A stretch of DNA of 64,000 nt from an uncultured Alphaproteobacteria bacterium. Its GTDB lineage: Bacteria > Pseudomonadota > Alphaproteobacteria > Rickettsiales > CAIJLX01. A program made the translations under genes and the position numbers. This document shows, piece after piece, positions 42,527 to 53,036 of the stretch. The notes beneath the pieces are model-generated. The model searched no databases and was not told the origin of the DNA. It worked only from the letters and a program-made list of their open reading frames with translations. Where the stretch lies: positions 3,542 to 67,541 of the forward strand of contig CAIJLX010000097.1 in NCBI GenBank assembly GCA_903821695.1, in the 5' to 3' direction. The stretch's first letter is position 1. Each line of letters starts with the position of its first letter.

Positions 42527-42560
42527 CGGGCAATCTTAGCCCGGCAAAAGTGATTTGAAA

Positions 42561-42610
42561 AGTGGCGGGAGTGACGGGACTTGAACCCGCGACCTCTGCC
42601 GTGACAGGGC
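42561..42610 (-). repeat. island att repeat, tRNA-distal copy (orphan 3' fragment of tRNA-Asp)
   Basis: AGTGGCGGGAGTGACGGGACTTGAACCCGCGACCTCTGCCGTGACAGGGC is identical over 50/50 nt to 52958-53007. It covers the tRNA from the CCA end through the anticodon loop. No 5' half follows it. Confidence 0.9.
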
Positions 42611-42755: not shown

Positions 42756-42781
42756 TTTTTTGGACTTCATTTGGACTTCAG
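42756..42781 (+). repeat. 26-bp internal island-end repeat, copy A (2 x TTTGGACTTCA)
   Basis: TTTTTTGGACTTCATTTGGACTTCAG is identical to 52878-52903. It lies 5 nt upstream of the integrase ATG. Confidence 0.85.
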
Positions 42782-42785
42782 AAAT

Positions 42786-44024
42786 ATGCGCCTCACAAAC
42801 ACGCTAGTCGGCAGTTTACCTAAGAAAGACAAGCCATACGATGCCCGTGATGAGGATTTAACAGGCTTTTTGGTGCGCGTCCACCCGACAGGCAAGAAGG
42901 TCTATTATCTGGAATATCGCAATAAGGAAGATGGTAGAAAGCAGAGATATAAGCTCGGCAATCATGGAGCTATCACCACACCTCAGGCGCGTGAGACGGC
43001 AAGCATAGAGGCGGGTAAGGTCGCACAGGGTGAGAATATCCAGCAGGTGAAGAAGCAGAATAAAAAACAGGATGCCGCAAAGAAAAGCCGAACGCTCCAG
43101 TTGTTTATCGAAACCCGATACGAAAAATGGACGCTGACGAATCTGAAATCTGGTAAGACTACTATCAACCGCATTAAGACCCAGTTTGCGGATATGATGG
43201 AAAAACCACTGGAAGATATAGACCTATACACAGTTGGAGAGTGGCAATCTGAACGCCTAGAGGAAGAAACCTCACACGCCACCATCAATCGTGACCTGAC
43301 TTGCCTAAAAGCGCTGTTATCGAAAGCAGTAGAATGGGAAATTATAAAAGAGCATCCGCTGGCAAAGCTGAAGCCGCTAAAGGTGGATGCTCACACCAAG
43401 GTGCGGTTTTTGGATGAAGACGAAGAAGCGGCGTTGCGTACTGCGCTAGACAAACGCGAAGAACGCATACGAACGGCGCGGGAATCACACAACGCATGGA
43501 GTAAGGAGCGCGGCTATCCACTAAAGCCTGATATTCCAAAAGATGCTTTTGCCGATCACCTGAAACCGATGGTTCTACTGTCACTCAATACAGGGATGAG
43601 GCGTGGTGAGTTATTCGGGCTTAAATGGGAGGATGTCAACCTCACGCAAAACATTCTGACCGTGATAGGCGACAACGCAAAAAGCGGCAAGACTCGCCAT
43701 ATACACCTAAACTCAGTAGCGATAAGTGCCCTTAAACAGTGGAAGAAGTACCGCGACAAATCTCCGCTTGTGTTTCCTGCTAAGGATGGTGAGAGGTTAA
43801 ATAATGTGAAAAAGTCGTGGGGTAAATTGTTAAACGATGCGGGCATCACCAACTTTCGCTGGCACGATATGCGGCACGACTTCGCCTCTAAACTGGTAAT
43901 GGCAGGGGTTGATTTGAACACGGTGCGTGAGCTACTAGGACACGCCACTATACAGATGACTTTGCGTTATGCTCACCTCGCCCCAAAACACAAAGCAGAT
44001 GCAGTAGAAAGGTTGGTGAAGTAA
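42786..44024 (+). CDS. int: tyrosine-type site-specific integrase (P4-like, DUF4102 arm-binding N-terminus)
   Basis: Start at ATG 42786 (MRLTNTLVGSLPKKDKPYDARDEDLTGFLVRVHPTGKKVYYLEYR, an Arm-DNA-binding type N-terminus). The catalytic region has TGMRRGELFGLKWEDV, HDMRHDFAS and LGHATIQMTLRYAH (R..H.R..Y). Confidence 0.92.
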   Translation: MRLTNTLVGSLPKKDKPYDARDEDLTGFLVRVHPTGKKVYYLEYRNKEDGRKQRYKLGNHGAITTPQARETASIEAGKVAQGENIQQVKKQNKKQDAAKKSRTLQLFIETRYEKWTLTNLKSGKTTINRIKTQFADMMEKPLEDIDLYTVGEWQSERLEEETSHATINRDLTCLKALLSKAVEWEIIKEHPLAKLKPLKVDAHTKVRFLDEDEEAALRTALDKREERIRTARESHNAWSKERGYPLKPDIPKDAFADHLKPMVLLSLNTGMRRGELFGLKWEDVNLTQNILTVIGDNAKSGKTRHIHLNSVAISALKQWKKYRDKSPLVFPAKDGERLNNVKKSWGKLLNDAGITNFRWHDMRHDFASKLVMAGVDLNTVRELLGHATIQMTLRYAHLAPKHKADAVERLVK

Positions 44025-44025
44025 T

Positions 44026-44799
44026 ATGGGATGGAAACTAAAACCCGCTGAATATTCAAGCGTTGAGGCGTATGCGAAAAAACACGGTATCCCCACAACA
44101 GAAGTCCTATTCTTGGCTTCACGGCAGGAAATTGACATCGGTTTTCTAAACGAAAAGGAGTGTCGGGCAAAAACCGGAATCATCGAATACGAAGAAGGCA
44201 TTGGTTACTACTTGTGTCAGGAGCCGGAATATGAGGATGCAATGTGTGCGGAGCCTATTCTTACCATTCCGGCCAACAGCCCTATTTATATTTACTACAG
44301 CCATATCTCTGAGTTGATAAATCACGGTGGCACGACCGTACGCTTTATAAAGTTTGATATAGCTCCCTATTCAAGTGAGGATGGTTTGGAATATCAAACT
44401 ACGTTTGCAGAATTGATGGAGCCTGTAAAAATACAGGCAGGCGGCCTGATGGTGATTACCCAGAAAGCCAGACTTATTAAAAAAATTGAAAAAGAAGCTA
44501 CGAAGGATCAAAAACCAAAGCAAGGCAAGCCATCAAAAGGGCATGAAGTAATAATGCAGGAGCTAAGACGTAGAGGGGAGGCAGGATTACTAAAATCGAA
44601 TGTCACGGATGAAGCCAATCACCTACATAATTGGTATGAAGACTTGCTCAACAAAATGGGTGAAGATATTAAGAAAAAATTACCAACATGGGAAACCATA
44701 CGCGATAACATCTCAAAAGATTTTTATAAATATCATGAGTCGATAAAGCAGACAGAGCCTTTGAAAGCACACAAAAAGAATGAAAATACTGAAGAATAA
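44026..44799 (+). CDS. hypothetical protein (island)
   Basis: 257-aa ORF starting 2 nt after the integrase stop. It is acidic and Lys-rich, and I recognise no family. Confidence 0.55.
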   Translation: MGWKLKPAEYSSVEAYAKKHGIPTTEVLFLASRQEIDIGFLNEKECRAKTGIIEYEEGIGYYLCQEPEYEDAMCAEPILTIPANSPIYIYYSHISELINHGGTTVRFIKFDIAPYSSEDGLEYQTTFAELMEPVKIQAGGLMVITQKARLIKKIEKEATKDQKPKQGKPSKGHEVIMQELRRRGEAGLLKSNVTDEANHLHNWYEDLLNKMGEDIKKKLPTWETIRDNISKDFYKYHESIKQTEPLKAHKKNENTEE

Positions 44800-44924
44800 T
44801 AAGACGATTTATTAGCCGATTTTCTAGCCGATATACTATTTAATAGAACCTATAAAGCAGGGTTGGAGTTCCCTTTTTAGTTGTGCCTAAGATGACCCCC
44901 AGTTCACAAAACTCTGGAGGTATT

Positions 44925-45191
44925 ATGGAACTTCTTTCAACAACGTCATTATCGCAAAAGACACCCACAATCACGCCAATGCTTCTAACCGAAGAAGAGG
45001 CAGCAGCGTACACATCTTTTAGTCGTTCTTTTTTACGCAAGTGTAGAATGACAGGGGCGGCACAAAATGGCATCCCGCAACCGAAGTTTATAAAAATCGG
45101 CAAGAGGGCTATCCGCTACCTAAAGTCGGATCTGGATGAATGGATTTCAAACTTCCAGCGAGTCGAGCATCTAGCCGCACTCGAAAACTAA
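44925..45191 (+). CDS. AlpA/excisionase-family HTH protein
   Basis: The ATG at 44925 follows GGAGG. LLTEEEAAAYTSFSRSFLRKCRMTG....IPQPKFIKIGKRAIRYLKSDLDEWI fits the phage AlpA / HTH_17 excisionase pattern. Confidence 0.7.
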   Translation: MELLSTTSLSQKTPTITPMLLTEEEAAAYTSFSRSFLRKCRMTGAAQNGIPQPKFIKIGKRAIRYLKSDLDEWISNFQRVEHLAALEN

Positions 45192-45371: not shown

Positions 45372-45519
45372 TGGATTGTAATATAATAACAAAATAACAG
45401 GCATCAGCATTTTTTAATAATTTTACTAACATTAACGATATGTTAACCTTTGTATGAAAGAATGGGTAAAGTCCAATAAAGCAATCTACAATAAATAAAA
45501 ACACATGAAGGGGAAAGAT

Positions 45520-48312
45520 ATGGCACTAGACTCAGCAAAAACCATCCTTGATAAACAACCAAACACCCCTTTGGGTGGTGCTGAAATTGACACATTACAG
45601 CCAGTAGATTTATTCGGTGTAGAAGATGCTAATGGTCAAAAACAATTTTTCTCATTTGGTAAGCAGCCGTTGGCTACACGTGATGCAGGTAAAGGAGAAA
45701 AAATCGGTGTTGTAGGTGCAGGTGATGTGTGGGACAAGTTCATACTTCCTACAATCGTGCAACGCGGAGCCGAGGCTTATGTATACGACAAGAAGTTTGA
45801 AGCATCTTGCTGGTTAGAGAAGGATTCTAGCTTAGCACCCGATGAAGCAGAAAAAAACGCGGCACAAGAGCGCGAGCGTTTTCAAGCCCTTATAAAAAAA
45901 GCTGGCAAGCAGGATAGCATCCATATGGTGCAGGGTGGCGTAGGTAATATGCCCAATGACTTGAGTTATGTTATGGTGCTTACCCCACCCTCAAGTCACC
46001 TACCAGTGATAAAACAGGTTATGAAAAGTGGTGTTCCTATCGTTGTTGAGAAGCCTTTAGTAGCTACATCAGCGCAAGCAGATGATTTAGCCAAAATACT
46101 GACAGAAACACCATAACCGCTTTACTGCATTGACTGGCAGGTTATGCACGCACTTCCCGTTTTGGCGGCCAGTGGGCTTAAAGTGCCGTTTGCTGATACA
46201 CTTCAAACAGAAGTTCAAAATGCTGCTGCTTATGCGAGATTCCAGCAAGCATTCGACTTAATGAATGTCAAAGTGATTGATGCGCGGTTTGTAGAAGGCG
46301 GAGAAAATCAGCTTGGCGATATTGAGGCTGCCATGAAAAAACGTCCTGAGCTTTTCGACTACGAAAAAGGAGGCGGTATGTTGTTCGACTTGGCAGTACA
46401 TCCTTTGAACGTACTCGCAACGCTCGGATTTAACTCTACTGGTGTAGATGAAGCCTTTCTTGGAAAGCCAAAGAAAGATGCCAATGGCAACTTCATGGCG
46501 GGTGTTTATGAGCGGTTTGGCAAAGAAGATGGCACTAAAACAGGCGAAACTTATGGTCGTGCCTTTATGCGTATGGGCATTGAAGGTGGTGGGCAGGATA
46601 TAAAAACTACCATCGAAGCTGCGAAAGGAGCCGCCTCTAATGATGGGCGACTGATACTTAACGATGGTAAATATGAGTTGCGGTGGGAGATGTTTCCAAA
46701 TGAAAAAAGCGGCATAGGAAGCAAGCTAGAAATTAAGGAATTGGCTACTGGAGAGGTTATTGCCACTTCAACGCTTGCGGCGGATTGTTATGCTTTAATC
46801 ATGCAAGACATTAGCAACTTTGTAAAAAGCGGAAGCAAAGATGCACCATACTTTCCTGAACACAGAGATATGATACACGCGATTGCCGCTATCCATACAC
46901 TGGCGCGTAGTCAGACAATTTCGACTGGCGAAGAAGTAAGACAACTCAAAATCGATGAATTAAAGGAGGTTGCTATGAATCAAGATAATACTCCACGGAG
47001 TGTGCCTGTAAAAAATATGAGCATAGACAGCACCCTTCCAAAAGATTGGAAAGATGGAACATTTGTTGGTCGTATCATGCTGCCAGAAGGTCCTGCGATA
47101 GTACGCCTAGAAACAGATGGTACTTTGACAGACATCACCCAGAGTTTCCGTACTATGAGTAAGTTGTGTAAAGAAGAAGACCCTGCGGCATCAGCAAAGG
47201 CTGTCACAGGTAGAACTATTGGTAAACTTGAAGATATTCTAAAAAATACATCAGAAGATCCAACCTCGCGTAATAAACCTCGCCTGATTTCGCCTATTGA
47301 TTTACAGACAGTGAAAGCAGCGGGTGTGACTTTTGCTGAATCACTGATTGAACGTGCCGTAGATGAAGCAACAGGTAGAATACCGAATGACCCCGCTGGA
47401 GTAGTGGGGCCAAAACAACAAAAGAAAGATGAAATACGCCAGCAACTCAGAAGTATGCTAGGAGAAGATATTTCGAAGATAAATCCGGGTTCACAAGAAG
47501 CACTTGCCTTATTAGACCACATTACTAAGCCAGTCGAAGAAGGTGGTCTTGGTCTTTCAAAACACTATTTTGCTGTAGGATTGGGAGAGCTGGCAGAAGT
47601 TTTCACAAAAGCAGACACCCTTGCATCTGTGGGCAGCGGCGTTGCGGCTGGATTTCTAGACGATGCAAAGTATGGGTTAAACAATCCAGAGCCAGAAGTC
47701 GTGCTTATCACCTCCCCGACCAAAGACAATAAGGGAGGAAGAGTGGTTGGTGCGGCACTAGGTAACGACATAAACCACAGGACGATTGAAGGAAAGTCAG
47801 CTCTTCTGCTTGGTGAATGTAAAAATCAGAATGGAACTTGTGCTATCGGTCCTTTTATACGTCTCTTTGACAAGAGTTTTTCGCTAGACGATGTTCGCAA
47901 AATGGAAGTCAATTTGCACATTGAAAACAGTGGAAAGCAAGTGTTTTCTGGCACAAATAACATGGCTGAAATTAGTCGTGAACCACAATCTCTTGTTGAC
48001 CAAATGTACGCAGAAAATAAAAGTTATGGCAGTGGGGCAGTGCTTTTCTGTGGCACTACCTGTGTTCCAAAAACACGAGATGACGGGACAGATTTTACAC
48101 ATCGCAAAGGGGATGTTGTCAGCATTACATCAGACAAACTTGGTTCTCTGAGAAATGTTATGCAACATTGTACTGATATTCCACAACCTGAGTTTGACCT
48201 TGATTCTCTGTCTGAAAACCATGCCAAACGCAATTTGTTCACATCCAAGGGGTCATTACAAGAATTGATGGGTAGTCGTAGATCTGAATCTCTGCCTACA
48301 TATCTTTTGTAA
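45520..48312 (+). pseudogene. Gfo/Idh/MocA-type oxidoreductase fused to an FAH-family (fumarylacetoacetate hydrolase-like) domain, interrupted by an in-frame TAA
   Basis: Track ORFs 45505..46116 and 46144..48312 are in the same frame and separated only by the TAA at 46114-46116. The N-terminal part has the Rossmann motifs IGVVGAGDV and VVEKPL. Reading across the stop gives ...ILTETP*PLYCIDWQV..., which continues the same fold. The C-terminal ~430 aa resemble FAH-family proteins (SPIDLQTVKAAGVTFAESLIERAVDE..., GNDINHR, SREP). Confidence 0.6.
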
Positions 48313-48679
48313 AAGGGATGGTGCTTCTGTTCCCAGCAAGGGAGTAAGCTATCAGTTATAGGCGATGATTTTGTTGTGATGCTGAACATATAGTCGTGTG
48401 CACCAGCAATCTTTTCCTAATTTCCCCCTTGTCTTTAACAGTCAATCCCCTATCGTTTCATTGAACAACCAAGCGGTTGTTTTGGAGCTTCAAACTCCAT
48501 CAGGGCGGCTGACATCGGCCGCGAATGATGTCGTCTTCCGACCTTTATGGCCGGAGTGCGATAATGCATGTCCAGCCTTGCGGTAAAGATTATCGCGGTC
48601 ATCCCTGATGATTTTGAAGCTCCGGCTACCAGCACAATTCCGTGTTGGTGGCTTGGGGCTTAATCAATCGGGGGGCGAA

Positions 48680-49702
48680 ATGACATCACTGCTTATATTA
48701 GTACTTTCCATCAGTCTTATTGTCGGCACTATTGCCGTATTTGTGGATTTGCCCACATTAAAAATCACAACACGCACACAGGGTAAAGTCATTGCGGGTA
48801 CTTCTTATCTGCTGCTGTTATTACTCGCGCCTGATGGTACAAAATACGGTCTTTTAGTGATGCTCTGCATGTCATCCATTCTTATTGGATTGTTAAATCT
48901 TGTCTATCCTTGGAAGCGGATAGGCATCCATACCCGAAAAACAGCAGGGTACATACTTCTCTTCGCACTCGTGCCTATGCTTGCTACAAATGCTTTTGAA
49001 ACACAGGATGGGGTTAGAATGCTCAGCTATAAAGCCGAGCAGCAGCGAACCGATAAAGTTGCGATAGAAAAGAAACGGCAAGAAATGCTGGCGCAGGAAG
49101 AAAAGATGAAGCTGGAACAGCCTGAAGCCTATGCAAAAATGATGGCGGATAAAGAGGCAGAAAGTCGTACACAACTAGCGAAGCAGAATGAGGTTAGCCA
49201 AAAAGAAGCGATGACACGTCAGAAAGCGGTAGATAGCCAAGCTGCTGTAGTGAGTACGATTGTCGTGGTTTTGTTTTTTGCTCTTATCGCTTGGATAGGT
49301 TGGCTCGGTTCAGCGATTAAAACCGAGATTTTGGCTGGAGATTTCAAAACGGGTATCGCTCCTATTTACCACATTCCATTCAAGGGGAAGTACATCACAC
49401 TGAAAAGCTCCGATGGTGGAACGAAGATGCTAAAAAAGTGGAAAGTCGAAAAAATATCACTGTCGGAACTGGATGCAGTAGATGAGGTTACGAAAGAGAA
49501 TGAGAAAAAGTTTGGTGGTTCGCTAGGGGCAAGCTTGGTTGGTGGTGCTATTTTCGGTGGCGCAGGATTGTTAGCAGGAGCATTATCTGGTGGAAGCAAA
49601 ACCAAGATAGCTTTCGCAGCCACATTCAAGGATGGCCGCAGGTTTCTAGGCACAGTAGATGGCAAAGAGTTTTTGGTGTTAAAAGCGGCAGCCTTCAAAT
49701 GA
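48680..49702 (+). CDS. hypothetical multi-TM / coiled-coil membrane protein (island cargo)
   Basis: The ATG at 48680 follows GGGGGG. Four N-terminal TM helices are followed by a Lys/Glu/Gln-rich coiled coil (KVAIEKKRQEMLAQEEKMKLEQPEAYAKMMADKEAE), a fifth TM helix, and a C-terminal globular part with a Gly-zipper (GGSLGASLVGGAIFGGAGLLAGALSGG). Confidence 0.6.
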   Translation: MTSLLILVLSISLIVGTIAVFVDLPTLKITTRTQGKVIAGTSYLLLLLLAPDGTKYGLLVMLCMSSILIGLLNLVYPWKRIGIHTRKTAGYILLFALVPMLATNAFETQDGVRMLSYKAEQQRTDKVAIEKKRQEMLAQEEKMKLEQPEAYAKMMADKEAESRTQLAKQNEVSQKEAMTRQKAVDSQAAVVSTIVVVLFFALIAWIGWLGSAIKTEILAGDFKTGIAPIYHIPFKGKYITLKSSDGGTKMLKKWKVEKISLSELDAVDEVTKENEKKFGGSLGASLVGGAIFGGAGLLAGALSGGSKTKIAFAATFKDGRRFLGTVDGKEFLVLKAAAFK

Positions 49703-50187
49703 GCCACAAAGTTTCGCACCTCATACTGCTAACGATATTGCTTTCAGCCTGTCAGAACATAATGCCAAGCGATAAAGGCTACTTGTATGGCACAGCCAAG
49801 GTCATTGATGGTGATACATTGCGGGTGGCTGGGGCTGATATAAGGTTGTTTGGCATTGATGCACCAGAGGTGAGTCAGACCTGCACCAGAAGAGGCGTGG
49901 AATGGTCATGTGGTGAGGTGGCAAAAAAACGCATGATAAAGTTAGCAGAAGGTAAAGTCGTGCGCTGCAATACCAGAGGCCGTGACTCACGCTATCGCCG
50001 CCCCGTGGCAGTGTGCTGGCTTGGTGGTAAAGAGCTGAACCGCATGATGGCGGCTGAAGGTCTGGCAGTAATAGATGAACGCTACCCCACCGATTATCAA
50101 AAAGAGCAAGCAGCAGCCCGCAAAGCAAAACGTGGTGTTTGGGCTGGAGAGTTTGAGCAGCCTAAAGATTGGCGGAAACAGAATTAA
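49699..50187 (+). CDS. SNase-type (thermonuclease family) nuclease, predicted lipoprotein
   Basis: The start overlaps the upstream stop (ATGA). Lipobox LLSAC. VIDGDTLRV, IRLFGIDAPE, RYRRPVAVC and AKRGVWA correspond to staphylococcal-nuclease Ca-binding and catalytic motifs. Confidence 0.8.
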   Translation: MSHKVSHLILLTILLSACQNIMPSDKGYLYGTAKVIDGDTLRVAGADIRLFGIDAPEVSQTCTRRGVEWSCGEVAKKRMIKLAEGKVVRCNTRGRDSRYRRPVAVCWLGGKELNRMMAAEGLAVIDERYPTDYQKEQAAARKAKRGVWAGEFEQPKDWRKQN

Positions 50188-50229: not shown

Positions 50230-50988
50230 ATGGCAAAGGCTGGAATAAAACATAAAGACTATAAAAAGCCTCCTATTAAAGAGGCAGTTATAGAGGTGCG
50301 CTTTACTGACAGCCTAAGTAATGCTGCCTTAGAAAAACTAGTCTTAAAGCTGAAATCTAAATTCAGCGTCCAGAAGATGGAAGAGTTTGGGATAAAAATA
50401 TCCCACGAACAAAAGTCTGGGGTAAAAACAGAGCCCTTAAAAACAAGGCTAATCGGTTATAAATTGATTGAAAATGCTGACAGCACGAATGTGGTGCTGC
50501 TTAAACATGATGCTTTTTCTATCTCGCAGCTTGCTCCTTATCGCGGATGGGCTGAATTTTTAGAGAACTTTAAGAAATACCACGACATTTATACACATAA
50601 GCAGCATAAGAAAATAAGTAGAATAGGCGTACGTTTTATCAATAGAATTGATATTCCAGCGAGTGGAAACAAGATTGAGCTTGAAGATTATTTCAATGTC
50701 TTCCCAACACTTCCTAAGAAGGATTTTCCGGACTTTAATCGTTATGTGGTTCAAACCACATCACTTCTCGATACAGAGAAATTGTTGACGATTAACGCTT
50801 ATAGCTATAACGAAGATACGCCACTTATAGACCACTGTTCTATTGTGTTGGATATAGATATTGGGCAAATAAATAATCTGCCACAGAACTCTACAAAACT
50901 ATATCAAGTGTTAGAAGAACTAAGAGAAAAGAAAAACTTTTTCTTTGAAAAACTGATTAAACCTCAATCCAGAAGGTTATTCAAATGA
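50230..50988 (+). CDS. TIGR04255-like uncharacterised protein
   Basis: 252 aa. The N-terminal YKKPPIKEAVIEVRF pattern and the overall size match my memory of the TIGR04255 family. No function is known. Confidence 0.5.
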   Translation: MAKAGIKHKDYKKPPIKEAVIEVRFTDSLSNAALEKLVLKLKSKFSVQKMEEFGIKISHEQKSGVKTEPLKTRLIGYKLIENADSTNVVLLKHDAFSISQLAPYRGWAEFLENFKKYHDIYTHKQHKKISRIGVRFINRIDIPASGNKIELEDYFNVFPTLPKKDFPDFNRYVVQTTSLLDTEKLLTINAYSYNEDTPLIDHCSIVLDIDIGQINNLPQNSTKLYQVLEELREKKNFFFEKLIKPQSRRLFK

Positions 50989-51599
50989 GTGCATTAGCCC
51001 GCTCCCCTTTTTTAAAGCAACAGTCTTCGTCCAAGTCTGAGGTAATATCGTCGAGTATTTATTCAAACTATCCTGACAATTTAGAATCTACTAACGCCAC
51101 AGGAAAGCCAGAAGAGCCTACCAGAACAGAAGAATTAGAAGACCCTTCAACGGAAGAAAGAGTGCTATGTAATCGCGCTGAATTAAAAATCATCGCCTCC
51201 ATATATGCATTGCAACATATAGAATCAAAGGTGCGGACTCAATTGTTTAACCAAATAGATTGGTTGCTTAGTCCTGAAAACTGGGAAGACGAAGATAAGC
51301 TAGCTAATAAAGATTCGTTTAAAACGCTGATTAAATTCATACTTAATTTCCATCCTACCGAAGCTCCTTATTTGGGGTTATCTTCAGAAGGTAATTTACT
51401 CGCTGAATGGCGACAAGAATCAAACAAGTTATCTCTTGAATGCCTTCCACAAGAGAAAACAAAATGGTTCGTTTCTTGCACAATTGATGGTGAAGGAGAG
51501 AGAGCCAGCGGGGAAGCTCCATCTTTGCGACGTTTGCTTAACTTGTTAGAGCCGTATAAAAAAGTGGGTTGGTTTAATGAGTCAGAAAAACATACCTGA
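50985..51599 (+). CDS. hypothetical protein (island cargo)
   Basis: 204 aa. The start overlaps the upstream stop (ATGA). The N-terminus is Ser-rich and acidic and looks disordered; the C-terminal half is globular. I recognise no family. Confidence 0.5.
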   Translation: MSALARSPFLKQQSSSKSEVISSSIYSNYPDNLESTNATGKPEEPTRTEELEDPSTEERVLCNRAELKIIASIYALQHIESKVRTQLFNQIDWLLSPENWEDEDKLANKDSFKTLIKFILNFHPTEAPYLGLSSEGNLLAEWRQESNKLSLECLPQEKTKWFVSCTIDGEGERASGEAPSLRRLLNLLEPYKKVGWFNESEKHT

Positions 51600-52050
51600 T
51601 AGCGATAATGTATTGCGATGGGCGAAGAATGCACATCTGGTCAAAAATCATGATGGAAAGGTTATCGGCTGTTATCATGTCCTATTCACATTGCGTACAG
51701 ACCAAGAATTTATAGACCGCAAAGGTAAAAAAGAGGATTTCTTATCTGTTAACTGGTTAGAGTATTTTACTGGCACCCAAGACGAGCAGCTCAACGCAGC
51801 AGTGAGTGAGTTTAAATCCAAAAGAGGGAATAAACTTCCGAAAAACTCTTATTTCACTCAACTTAATGTTGGAGAGCTCAAAGAACTCTGCCTCAAGCAT
51901 TCGGCCAAAGTCAGGGTAGTTCACGAATCAACAAAAGACAGCCACAGTGCGATTAGACAGTTACCCCAAGACAAAACTATGCTTTTTGATGATTTATGCA
52001 CGGCGGCTTCTAAGAGCCTAATACCAGCCACTAAGTTTGCTTGCAAGTAA
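51577..52050 (+). CDS. hypothetical protein (island cargo)
   Basis: 157 aa, overlapping the upstream gene by 23 nt. The N-terminus IPDSDNVLRWAK... and the FLSVNWLEYF motif look like a recurrent uncharacterised family that I cannot name. Confidence 0.5.
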   Translation: MSQKNIPDSDNVLRWAKNAHLVKNHDGKVIGCYHVLFTLRTDQEFIDRKGKKEDFLSVNWLEYFTGTQDEQLNAAVSEFKSKRGNKLPKNSYFTQLNVGELKELCLKHSAKVRVVHESTKDSHSAIRQLPQDKTMLFDDLCTAASKSLIPATKFACK

Positions 52051-52185: not shown

Positions 52186-52719
52186 ATGAAAAATCAAAAC
52201 AACCATCGCCCTACCTTAAACAAGCGTATTGTGGTGGACGCAGAGCTTGCGAGAAAGCTACTTGCGTTCAAAAACGGCTGTAAATCTGGTGAGTTTGATA
52301 AGAAAGTCGAAAAAAAGTTCGGCATCAAAAGACGTAAGGCACGGTATGTGCTGCAAATTGCAGACAAGCTAAAGGAATCGGAAATAGCATGGGAAAAGGT
52401 TGGGCACTTGGGGTGGACAAAGCTAAAAGAGCTTGCGCTGATTATAACCAAAGAGAATGTTGATGAGATAATGAAAAAACTAGCAGATGCTAACATTGAT
52501 ACAGTGAAGAAGTTTGTCCGCCAATATGATGGGGATAGTAAGCAGGTGGTCGAACCAGTAAAAACCATGTTGCTCACATTATCACCTGCTCAGTATGACG
52601 CGATAAAGAAAACTTTGGAGCGTATAAAGGTAAAGAAACTGGACGGCAACGGCGAAGCACTAGCCGCACTGTGCAAATCTGCCGAGCTAACGCACAAGCG
52701 AGCCAACAAAACCAAGTGA
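52186..52719 (+). CDS. hypothetical basic protein, possibly DNA-binding (island)
   Basis: 177 aa and Lys/Arg-rich, with a strong SD (GGAGGAACGGAGG). The segment RRKARYVLQIADKL...GHLGWTKLKELA is loosely ParB/HTH-like. I recognise no firm family. Confidence 0.5.
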   Translation: MKNQNNHRPTLNKRIVVDAELARKLLAFKNGCKSGEFDKKVEKKFGIKRRKARYVLQIADKLKESEIAWEKVGHLGWTKLKELALIITKENVDEIMKKLADANIDTVKKFVRQYDGDSKQVVEPVKTMLLTLSPAQYDAIKKTLERIKVKKLDGNGEALAALCKSAELTHKRANKTK

Positions 52720-52877: not shown

Positions 52878-52903
52878 TTTTTTGGACTTCATTTGGACTT
52901 CAG
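52878..52903 (+). repeat. 26-bp internal island-end repeat, copy B (2 x TTTGGACTTCA)
   Basis: Identical to 42756-42781. It lies 55 nt inside the tRNA-proximal att repeat and is followed by a 10-bp inverted repeat, CAGTCACTTT (52901-52910) / AAAGTGACTG (52944-52953). Confidence 0.85.
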
Positions 52904-52957: not shown

Positions 52958-53007
52958 AGTGGCGGGAGTGACGGGACTTGAACCCGCGACCTCTGCCGTG
53001 ACAGGGC
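52958..53007 (-). repeat. island att repeat, tRNA-proximal copy
   Basis: 50/50 identity with 42561-42610. It forms the 3' 48 nt of tRNA-Asp plus 2 nt. Confidence 0.9.
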
Positions 53008-53036
53008 AGCGCTCTAACCAACTGAGCTACACCCCC
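52960..53036 (-). tRNA. tRNA-Asp (anticodon GTC)
   Basis: The reverse complement folds as acceptor GGGGGTG/CACTCCC (one G-U pair), D arm GCTC-AGTTGGTTA-GAGC, anticodon arm CTGCC-CTGTCAC-GGCAG, T arm GCGGG-TTCAAGT-CCCGT, discriminator G and CCA. Confidence 0.9.

Follow-up and report, generated by a model that had tools for sequence, protein, structure and literature searches.

A Three-Gene Cassette at Positions 50230–52050

The 64,000-nt stretch of contig CAIJLX010000097.1 from an uncultured alphaproteobacterium (hereafter the window) carries on its forward strand, at positions 50230–52050, three overlapping genes that form a previously undescribed cassette. The cassette spans many phyla and is built of three uncharacterised families. 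Gene 1 (50230–50988; ATG to TGA) encodes a 252-aa member of the NCBIfam family TIGR04255 and is the accessory first gene of the cassette. Gene 2 (50985–51599; ATG to TGA) encodes 204 aa, divided into an N-terminal tail that is Ser-rich, acidic, of low complexity and hypervariable (residues 1–56; 50985–51152, forward strand) and a conserved C-terminal domain (residues 57–204; 51153–51599, forward strand). Gene 3 (51577–52050; ATG to TAA) encodes 157 aa and is the most conserved component.

Genes 1 and 2 overlap by the 4 nt ATGA (50985–50988) and genes 2 and 3 by 23 nt (51577–51599), exactly at the coordinates given for these three co-directional open reading frames (ORFs) in an earlier note on this DNA. 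Homologues keep MSAL... at the N-terminus of gene 2 and M..K..IPDSDNVLR at that of gene 3, which supports both assigned start codons. A promoter and terminator scan gave no signal above chance inside the three-gene unit, and an Rfam scan found only tRNA. The overlaps support co-transcription and make translational coupling of the three genes plausible, but taken alone they are no proof of the stoichiometric co-expression claimed earlier. The junctions of homologues range from −49 to +36 nt. No transmembrane-like segment occurs in any of the three proteins (maximum 19-residue Kyte-Doolittle mean ≤0.8), which agrees with the earlier description, and none of them matches a housekeeping family in NCBIfam, Pfam, PADLOC or PHROG.

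Conservation of the Cassette across Genomes

An indexed homologue search returned 58 clusters for gene 1, 29 for gene 2 and nine for gene 3, which at first made gene 3 look very rare. Every contig with a gene 2 relative from this search carries the complete set, consisting of a TIGR04255 protein of ~250 aa, a protein of ~195 aa and one of ~150–164 aa. Seven independent metagenomic loci show the same three-gene order and strand, with overlapping or abutting genes and 31–60% identity, far more agreement than chance would give.

A genome scan, using one genome per species and the gene 3 core LSVNW[LV]E[YF][FY], yielded 130 confirmed loci, of which 80 were kept. They span the Alpha-, Beta- and Gammaproteobacteria, Chloroflexota, Latescibacterota, Acidobacteriota, Rhodothermales, Desulfobacterota, Planctomycetota, Nitrospinota and others. 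Iterated hidden Markov models were then run over all ORFs of 90 loci (81 non-redundant), which were selected via the gene 3 motif. In 88 of the 90, which are all the testable loci, the gene 3 homologue is immediately preceded by a homologue of gene 2; contig ends cut the other two loci. The junction between the two genes is typically −4 nt. The first position is far more variable. TIGR04255 occupies it in 39 of the 90 loci (33 of 81 non-redundant, ~40%) and an apparently unrelated family of ~215–235 aa in 24 (~30% of the 81 non-redundant loci), while 24 non-redundant loci have neither. Thirteen of these last (~16% of 81) have a short gene 2 of 129–188 aa, whose product begins essentially at the conserved domain.

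The neighbourhoods of homologues are not random and the triad does recur, a point that the earlier note had proposed to check, but the conserved unit is the gene 2 and gene 3 pair plus an exchangeable or dispensable first gene rather than a fixed set of three. Among 31 TIGR04255-type triads, mean pairwise identity is 0.35 for gene 3 and 0.27 for both gene 1 and the gene 2 core. The divergences of the three genes are closely correlated (rho 0.65–0.82), which indicates that, in these triads, the unit is inherited together.

Gene 1 and the First Position

Gene 1 scores 86.3 bits against TIGR04255 (cut-off 30; E = 2.8e-24) and covers positions 2–252 of the 252-position profile, so the family assignment suggested earlier from its N-terminal sequence holds over the full length; the JGI annotation carries the same label. 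TIGR04255 is a "sporadically distributed" NCBIfam family of unknown function, and a full-text literature search found no paper that mentions it. An alignment of 48 sequences shows E18, Y104, R135, N138 and D208 to be invariant and P15, A19, W107, R131, G133, D210 and K235 near-invariant.

The AF2 model of gene 1 (predicted local distance difference test score, pLDDT, 94.2; predicted template modelling score, pTM, 0.88) is a two-lobed alpha/beta sandwich. Its best Foldseek match in the PDB is S-adenosylmethionine decarboxylase (AdoMetDC)/prozyme (E = 8.7e-4, probability 0.99, template modelling (TM) score 0.29, 6% identity). A profile search against PDB sequences found none, nor does gene 1 match Pfam, PADLOC or PHROG. 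Identity with AdoMetDC was rejected given the TM score of 0.29 and the lack of a PDB profile match, and no Glu-Ser (ES) dipeptide, as in the AdoMetDC pyruvoyl site, is found among the invariant and near-invariant columns of the 48 sequences. Judging from the model, the resemblance would be one of fold at most. A triphosphate-tunnel (CYTH/TTM) reading, prompted by alternating charged residues in the beta-strands and by RNA triphosphatases among the weak Foldseek matches of gene 1 (probability 0.2–0.3), had no profile support and was dropped.

Six distant TIGR04255 members (L091, L092, L093, L094, L097, and L098; 21–34% identity) were examined for what they precede. In five of the six, all except L094, the next gene encodes a gene 2-family protein. 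L091 and L097 are full triads headed by a distant TIGR04255 protein. L092, L093 and L098 are variant cassettes with shorter gene 2 cores. Their second genes belong to the gene 2 family (hhalign probability 96.7%, E = 4e-10), and their third genes, of ~140 aa, have motifs in register with gene 3 at an hhalign probability of only 21–32%. L098 is found in the P2-like Ralstonia phage YO139_2 (ON170239.1), where a TIGR04255 gene, a gene 2-family gene and a third gene of 146 aa occupy 34.6–36.4 kb. The second of these begins with a Ser-rich stretch of ~45 aa, as read from the sequence. The L098 cassette lies near one end of the genome record, which is unannotated and flagged UNVERIFIED_ORG.

The sixth member, L094, is on the Crinalium epipsammum plasmid pCRI9333.03 (4992–6822). 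The two genes downstream of its TIGR04255 gene (182 and 171 aa) overlap or adjoin each other and bear no relation to genes 2 and 3. TIGR04255 is thus usually, though not invariably, the head of a gene 2-type cassette, and it may serve more than one kind of downstream pair.

The alternative first-gene family (24 loci: L005 and loci within L034–L090; for example L034, 3584–4264) has the consensus ...VSVVVTAEFHNPSILNPDFL..IVP.DW...YRSLGLNC... and matches nothing in Pfam, NCBIfam or the PDB sequences. Its hhalign probability against TIGR04255 is 8–10%, with the C-terminal halves aligning collinearly, and the two families may be structural analogues at a very remote level.

Gene 2: A Variable Tail on a Conserved Domain

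The first 56 residues of gene 2 are 21% Ser, 30% Ser plus Thr, 16% Asp plus Glu and 16% hydrophobic, with an isoelectric point (pI) of 4.5. This composition, and the conserved domain at residues 57–204, agree with the earlier description of a Ser-rich, acidic, disordered N-terminus followed by a globular C-terminal half. The tail is the most variable region of gene 2, both in length and in sequence, and its presence goes with that of a first gene. A first gene accompanies none of the 13 gene 2 proteins shorter than 190 aa, which have no room for a tail, as against 57 of the 68 longer ones (Fisher p = 6.6e-9, a value obtained by treating 81 phylogenetically related loci as independent, with longest-ORF calls and motif-selected gene 3 sequences).

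In the gene 2 core, W142 is invariant across the wide family and L94, S111, P128, G136, F153 and G176 are near-invariant. Conservation that falls mostly on hydrophobic, Gly, Pro and Trp residues is as expected of a binding module. Gene 2 has no match in Pfam, NCBIfam, PHROG or the PDB sequences. Its residues 67–169 match positions 241–344 of the 375 in the PADLOC model PDC-M32A (E = 1.8e-5), a weak match over 104 positions that is shared by only three of 33 gene 2 family members. PDC-M32 is a two-gene PADLOC candidate mentioned in the literature only as an untested candidate, and genes 1 and 3 do not match its second component, PDC-M32B. By sequence, gene 2 and PDC-M32A would have a distantly shared domain at most.

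Gene 3: A Putative Effector with a Conserved Polar Set

Gene 3 belongs to a large superfamily. A profile search retrieved 1,221 cluster representatives (clusters at 50% identity) at E ≤ 1e-3, including 388 at E ≤ 1e-10. Almost all of them are standalone proteins of 140–165 aa, and the members sampled contain no Pfam domain. The motifs IPDSDNVLRW and LSVNWLEYF, which had been picked out earlier in gene 3, are both hallmarks of this family. Across 232 sequences, the conserved polar set consists of R14 (97%), S57 (100%), W60 (97%) and E62 (98%), together with R40 (86%, otherwise Lys), E53 (81%, otherwise Asp) and H123 (93%, otherwise Tyr). The set looks like an active site or a ligand pocket. The earlier statement that no catalytic motif is visible was too pessimistic, since nearly invariant sets of polar residues are found in gene 1 as well as in gene 3.

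The AF2 model of gene 3 (pLDDT 91.1, pTM 0.86) is an alpha/beta fold with mixed beta-strands and four helices. Foldseek searches with it found no match in the PDB (best E = 0.48, TM score < 0.25) or among the viral models of BFVD (best E = 0.038), and the sequence matches no Pfam, NCBIfam, PADLOC or PHROG family. The only PDB sequence matches seen in a profile search were short ones to eL13, which are spurious. Readings of the conserved residues as those of ART, RES or a Ser-His-Glu hydrolase were rejected; the motif spacing does not fit and there is no Pfam or fold support.

Mobility, Multiplicity and Decay

In the window, a 10.4-kb integrative island carries the cassette as cargo, with a spacing of 10,397 bp between the att direct repeats. 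The GC content is 0.434 for the island and 0.386 for the triad, compared to 0.470 for the window. Elsewhere the cassette is also found on plasmids and, as described above, in a P2-like Ralstonia phage. Viral collections contain almost none: of the 2.9 million contigs in IMG/VR two have it, and the 50,697 phage records of INPHARED gave no match to gene 3.

Some genomes hold several copies. A Dehalococcoidia chromosome (L032, 992–5423) carries the short two-gene form three times in tandem; in each unit a gene 2-like gene (147 aa) and a gene 3-like gene (~140 aa) overlap by 4 nt. One Latescibacterota contig has two cassettes (L081 and L036), one headed by TIGR04255 and the other by the alternative family. 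Decayed copies occur as well: L001 and L023 have a split gene 1, L054 has all three genes in fragments, and in L026 and L027 a broken gene 3 stands beside an intact gene 2. One gene 3 homologue, on plasmid pRgalR602b of Rhizobium gallicum (L095, 4914–5444; E = 5e-37), is an orphan without an upstream gene 2, and its conserved residues are apparently intact. This orphan adjoins a divergently oriented VapC/DUF433 pair and lies near nif genes.

A Pfam census of the 145 nearest flanking genes of ~75 loci identified 159 Pfam families and no recurrent fourth gene. Housekeeping functions dominate among these flanking genes; resolvase, DNA methylase, DDE transposase and PLD were each seen just twice. 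In several alphaproteobacterial metagenome-assembled genomes, the cassette occupies one variable spot between the ccm operon and aroA-cmk-rpsA. This interval, from ccm to FYDLN_acid/aroA/cmk/rpsA in L001, L007, L008 and L010, is a variable hotspot that also holds DUF3047, and in L010 FitA/PIN, DUF2442 and GIY-YIG genes stand beside the cassette.

A Possible Toxin–Antitoxin-Type Module with a Tail-Binding Accessory

The anatomy of the cassette (small overlapping genes, sporadic spread, mobile carriage, tandem copies and decay) fits a toxin–antitoxin (TA)-like or sensor/effector reading. We propose, with a confidence of roughly 0.4, that it is a TA-type conflict module with a tail-binding accessory. 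We favour this reading because of the linked pair, the accessory that tracks a disordered tail, the autonomy from neighbours, the mobility, the multiplicity and the decay. The cassette is an autonomous, horizontally mobile unit with an invariant core of genes 2 and 3 and an exchangeable accessory first gene. According to the model, gene 3 would be an enzyme-like effector, and the C-terminal domain of gene 2 would bind the gene 3 product and keep it from acting. The disordered tail of gene 2 would serve the gene 1 product as a docking site or regulatory handle, and the gene 1 product would in turn control how stable or available gene 2 is. The comparisons themselves show that the cassette is conserved and mobile, that genes 2 and 3 are linked in all testable loci, that the first gene can be exchanged and goes with the tail, and that gene 3 is conserved in the manner of an enzyme; the binding partners, the identity of the harmful protein and any link to phage defence or island stabilisation are what we infer. 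We assign the harmful role to gene 3 because it is the more conserved, its conserved residues are enzyme-like, its place agrees with the usual gene order, and it is broken beside an intact gene 2 in two decayed loci (L026 and L027).

The closest functional parallel is with the toxin–antitoxin–chaperone (TAC) systems, such as HigBAC and CmdTAC. In TAC, a SecB-like chaperone recognises a disordered and variable extension of the antitoxin, the chaperone addiction (ChAD) sequence; removal of ChAD results in a chaperone-independent TA, and the accessory module is exchangeable (bioRxiv 10.1101/2024.02.24.581848). Like these, the cassette consists of three small co-transcribed genes, a two-gene core and an accessory, and the accessory goes with a disordered, variable extension on the middle protein, which here is the gene 2 tail (0/13 compared to 57/68). 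The accessory is exchangeable in both, and the tail-less two-gene forms that occur naturally here correspond to the ChAD-less TAs that were made there. The differences are substantial, however. Instead of a SecB-like chaperone, the cassette has a TIGR04255 protein, an AdoMetDC-like sandwich at best; its extension is N-terminal, unlike the C-terminal ChAD; its accessory gene comes first rather than last; and it has no homology to HigB, HigA, CmdT or CmdA, with gene 2 lacking a helix-turn-helix. The cassette may work like TAC but is not a member of it, and the analogy would be functional only.

Similarly, the cassette resembles type II TA systems in having a conserved, adjacent, co-directional pair of small genes (in all 88 testable loci, the overlap being 4 nt in most), in which a gene of the size of a neutraliser lies upstream of, and overlaps, a gene for ~150 aa. 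Like them, it is autonomous, sporadic and multi-copy, is found on mobile elements and has decayed copies. It differs from them in that genes 2 and 3 fall outside the known toxin and antitoxin families, gene 2 has no DNA-binding domain, and the fold of gene 3 has no match among solved structures.

Several observations count against a TA-type module. In family and profile searches, genes 1–3 showed no homology to toxins, antitoxins, chaperones or defence proteins already known. Pfam recognises no DNA-binding domain in gene 2, whereas most type II antitoxins have one, and among the closest relatives the gene 2 core is as conserved as gene 3. The polar residues of gene 1 (E18, Y104, R135, N138 and D208) suggest an enzyme or a ligand sensor and not a passive chaperone. 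The orphan gene 3 of L095 is awkward if gene 3 is strongly toxic, and defence genes are not enriched among the 145 flanking genes of the ~75 loci. The association of tail and first gene has to be read with the relatedness and the selection of its loci in mind. Finally, the pattern of a basic toxin and an acidic antitoxin, which the pI values of genes 1, 2 and 3 in the window (9.4, 5.0 and 9.1) do show, was discarded as evidence because it does not extend family-wide.

The broader proposal, that genes 2 and 3 found a new phylum-spanning family of conflict modules with an unseen effector fold, a tail-controlled neutraliser and interchangeable accessories, among them TIGR04255 as a tail-binding sensor or stabiliser, is put forward tentatively. 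If it is true, control of a neutraliser by an accessory that acts on its disordered tail, the principle of TAC, would have evolved a second time independently, and gene 3, with ~1,200 clusters, would be a toxin with an enzymatic effector fold new to the repertoire. TIGR04255, a family with no described function to which the gene 2-type cassettes now give a genomic context, would for the first time have a role assigned to it, that of a sensor or stabiliser which binds the tail, in parallel with the SecB-like chaperones but unrelated to them. Three families labelled "hypothetical" or "TIGR04255 family" would share a functional context, and the swappable first genes would offer a way into how such modules gain new triggers. 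The natural series of tail-less, accessory-free forms makes the TAC-like idea directly testable.

Alternative Explanations

The alternative that survives best, though we consider it rather unlikely in its own right, overlaps with the TA-type reading: the cassette could be a dedicated anti-phage defence system, in which the first gene senses a phage product, gene 2 is the adaptor and gene 3 is an abortive-infection effector. An exchangeable first gene fits a variable sensor, but the two-gene forms have no sensor-like first gene at all. Some contexts also point this way. The L092 variant cassette sits between GmrSD/DUF488 and a UvrD-type helicase, L091 adjoins a giant polyvalent protein of a mobile element, the P2-like Ralstonia phage carries its TIGR04255 and gene 2-family cassette near the genome end, and the cassette in the window is island cargo adjoining a secreted nuclease gene. 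Against these cases, the neighbours across ~75 loci are mostly housekeeping genes, with methylase, resolvase, transposase and PLD seen twice each, and the cassette is nearly absent from viral collections (the two IMG/VR contigs, and gene 3 in none of the INPHARED records). The weak match of gene 2 to the PADLOC candidate PDC-M32A is likewise in favour, yet it touches three of 33 gene 2 relatives, and genes 1 and 3 match no PADLOC model.

A non-conflict cytoplasmic complex of an enzyme and its regulator, made patchy by horizontal transfer, is in our view unlikely. Gene 3 could, for example, be a stress-response enzyme or one that modifies a nucleotide or metabolite, with gene 2 as its regulatory subunit and gene 1 as an optional second enzyme or ligand sensor. 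This would account for genes 1 and 3 resembling enzymes or ligand binders, for the missing similarity to known toxins, for a gene 2 without a DNA-binding domain and for the existence of an orphan gene 3 (L095). The predominantly housekeeping flanks are in its favour, but no pathway gene recurs beside the cassette. Nor does it readily explain the sporadic occurrence across unrelated phyla or the carriage on an island, plasmids and a phage; a first subunit that can be replaced by an unrelated family or dropped also speaks against it, and tandem triplication, divergent copies within a genome and frequent decay would be unusual for a metabolic complex. Even if the cassette is not a conflict system, the strict linkage of the pair and the modular first gene still mark a widespread uncharacterised complex that deserves biochemistry.

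A role peculiar to the tRNA-Asp island, for instance in the control of integration or excision, in replication or in the exclusion of competing elements, is very improbable. The cassette does lie in a 10.4-kb island that has an integrase and an AlpA-like excisionase, but most other loci have no integrase nearby and place it between unrelated housekeeping genes, the remaining genes of the island are not conserved along with it, and the neighbour census largely refutes the idea.

The Island at tRNA-Asp and Its Other Genes

The integration target of the island is a tRNA-Asp(GTC) gene on the reverse strand (52960–53036; ARAGORN; Rfam 72.8 bits), whose 3' half (52960–53007) is the proximal att repeat. 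The distal att repeat (42559–42610) is a copy of this 3' half and forms the repeat with 52960–53007. Housekeeping genes flank the island, Amt and GNAT on one side and MlaC and MlaA on the other. At the distal end of the island, a tyrosine integrase is encoded on the forward strand (42771–44024; Pfam Phage_integrase, 2.3e-33, with Arm-DNA-bind_3 and Int_N), followed within the island by an uncharacterised gene for 257 aa (44026–44796) and an excisionase-like gene with Pfam AlpA/HTH_17 matches (44883–45188). The island also has a perfect 26-nt repeat, TTTTTTGGACTTCATTTGGACTTCAG, with one copy just inside each end (42756–42781 and 52878–52903). It contains a tandem TTTGGACTTCA, and its left copy overlaps the integrase start; the two copies may be arm-type recombinase binding sites.

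Between the excisionase-like gene and the cassette, positions 45505–48312 contain two ORFs in the same frame, split by a single in-frame TAA (46114–46116; ...ILTETP*PLYCIDWQV...). Joined, they would encode a protein of ~925 aa with an N-terminal GFO/IDH/MocA Rossmann domain and a C-terminal FAA-hydrolase domain, and the interrupted frame is likely a pseudogene or a sequencing error. Directly upstream of the triad, positions 48608–50187 encode another coupled pair, consisting of a 364-aa protein with multiple transmembrane segments and a C-terminal domain matching phrog_12025/20920, and, overlapping it by 4 nt, a 162-aa SNase-family (thermonuclease-like) protein with a lipoprotein-like N-terminus. 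Downstream of the triad, the last island gene before the tRNA (52186–52719) encodes a 177-aa protein that matches phrog_17202 (E = 5e-21), a phage family of unknown function.

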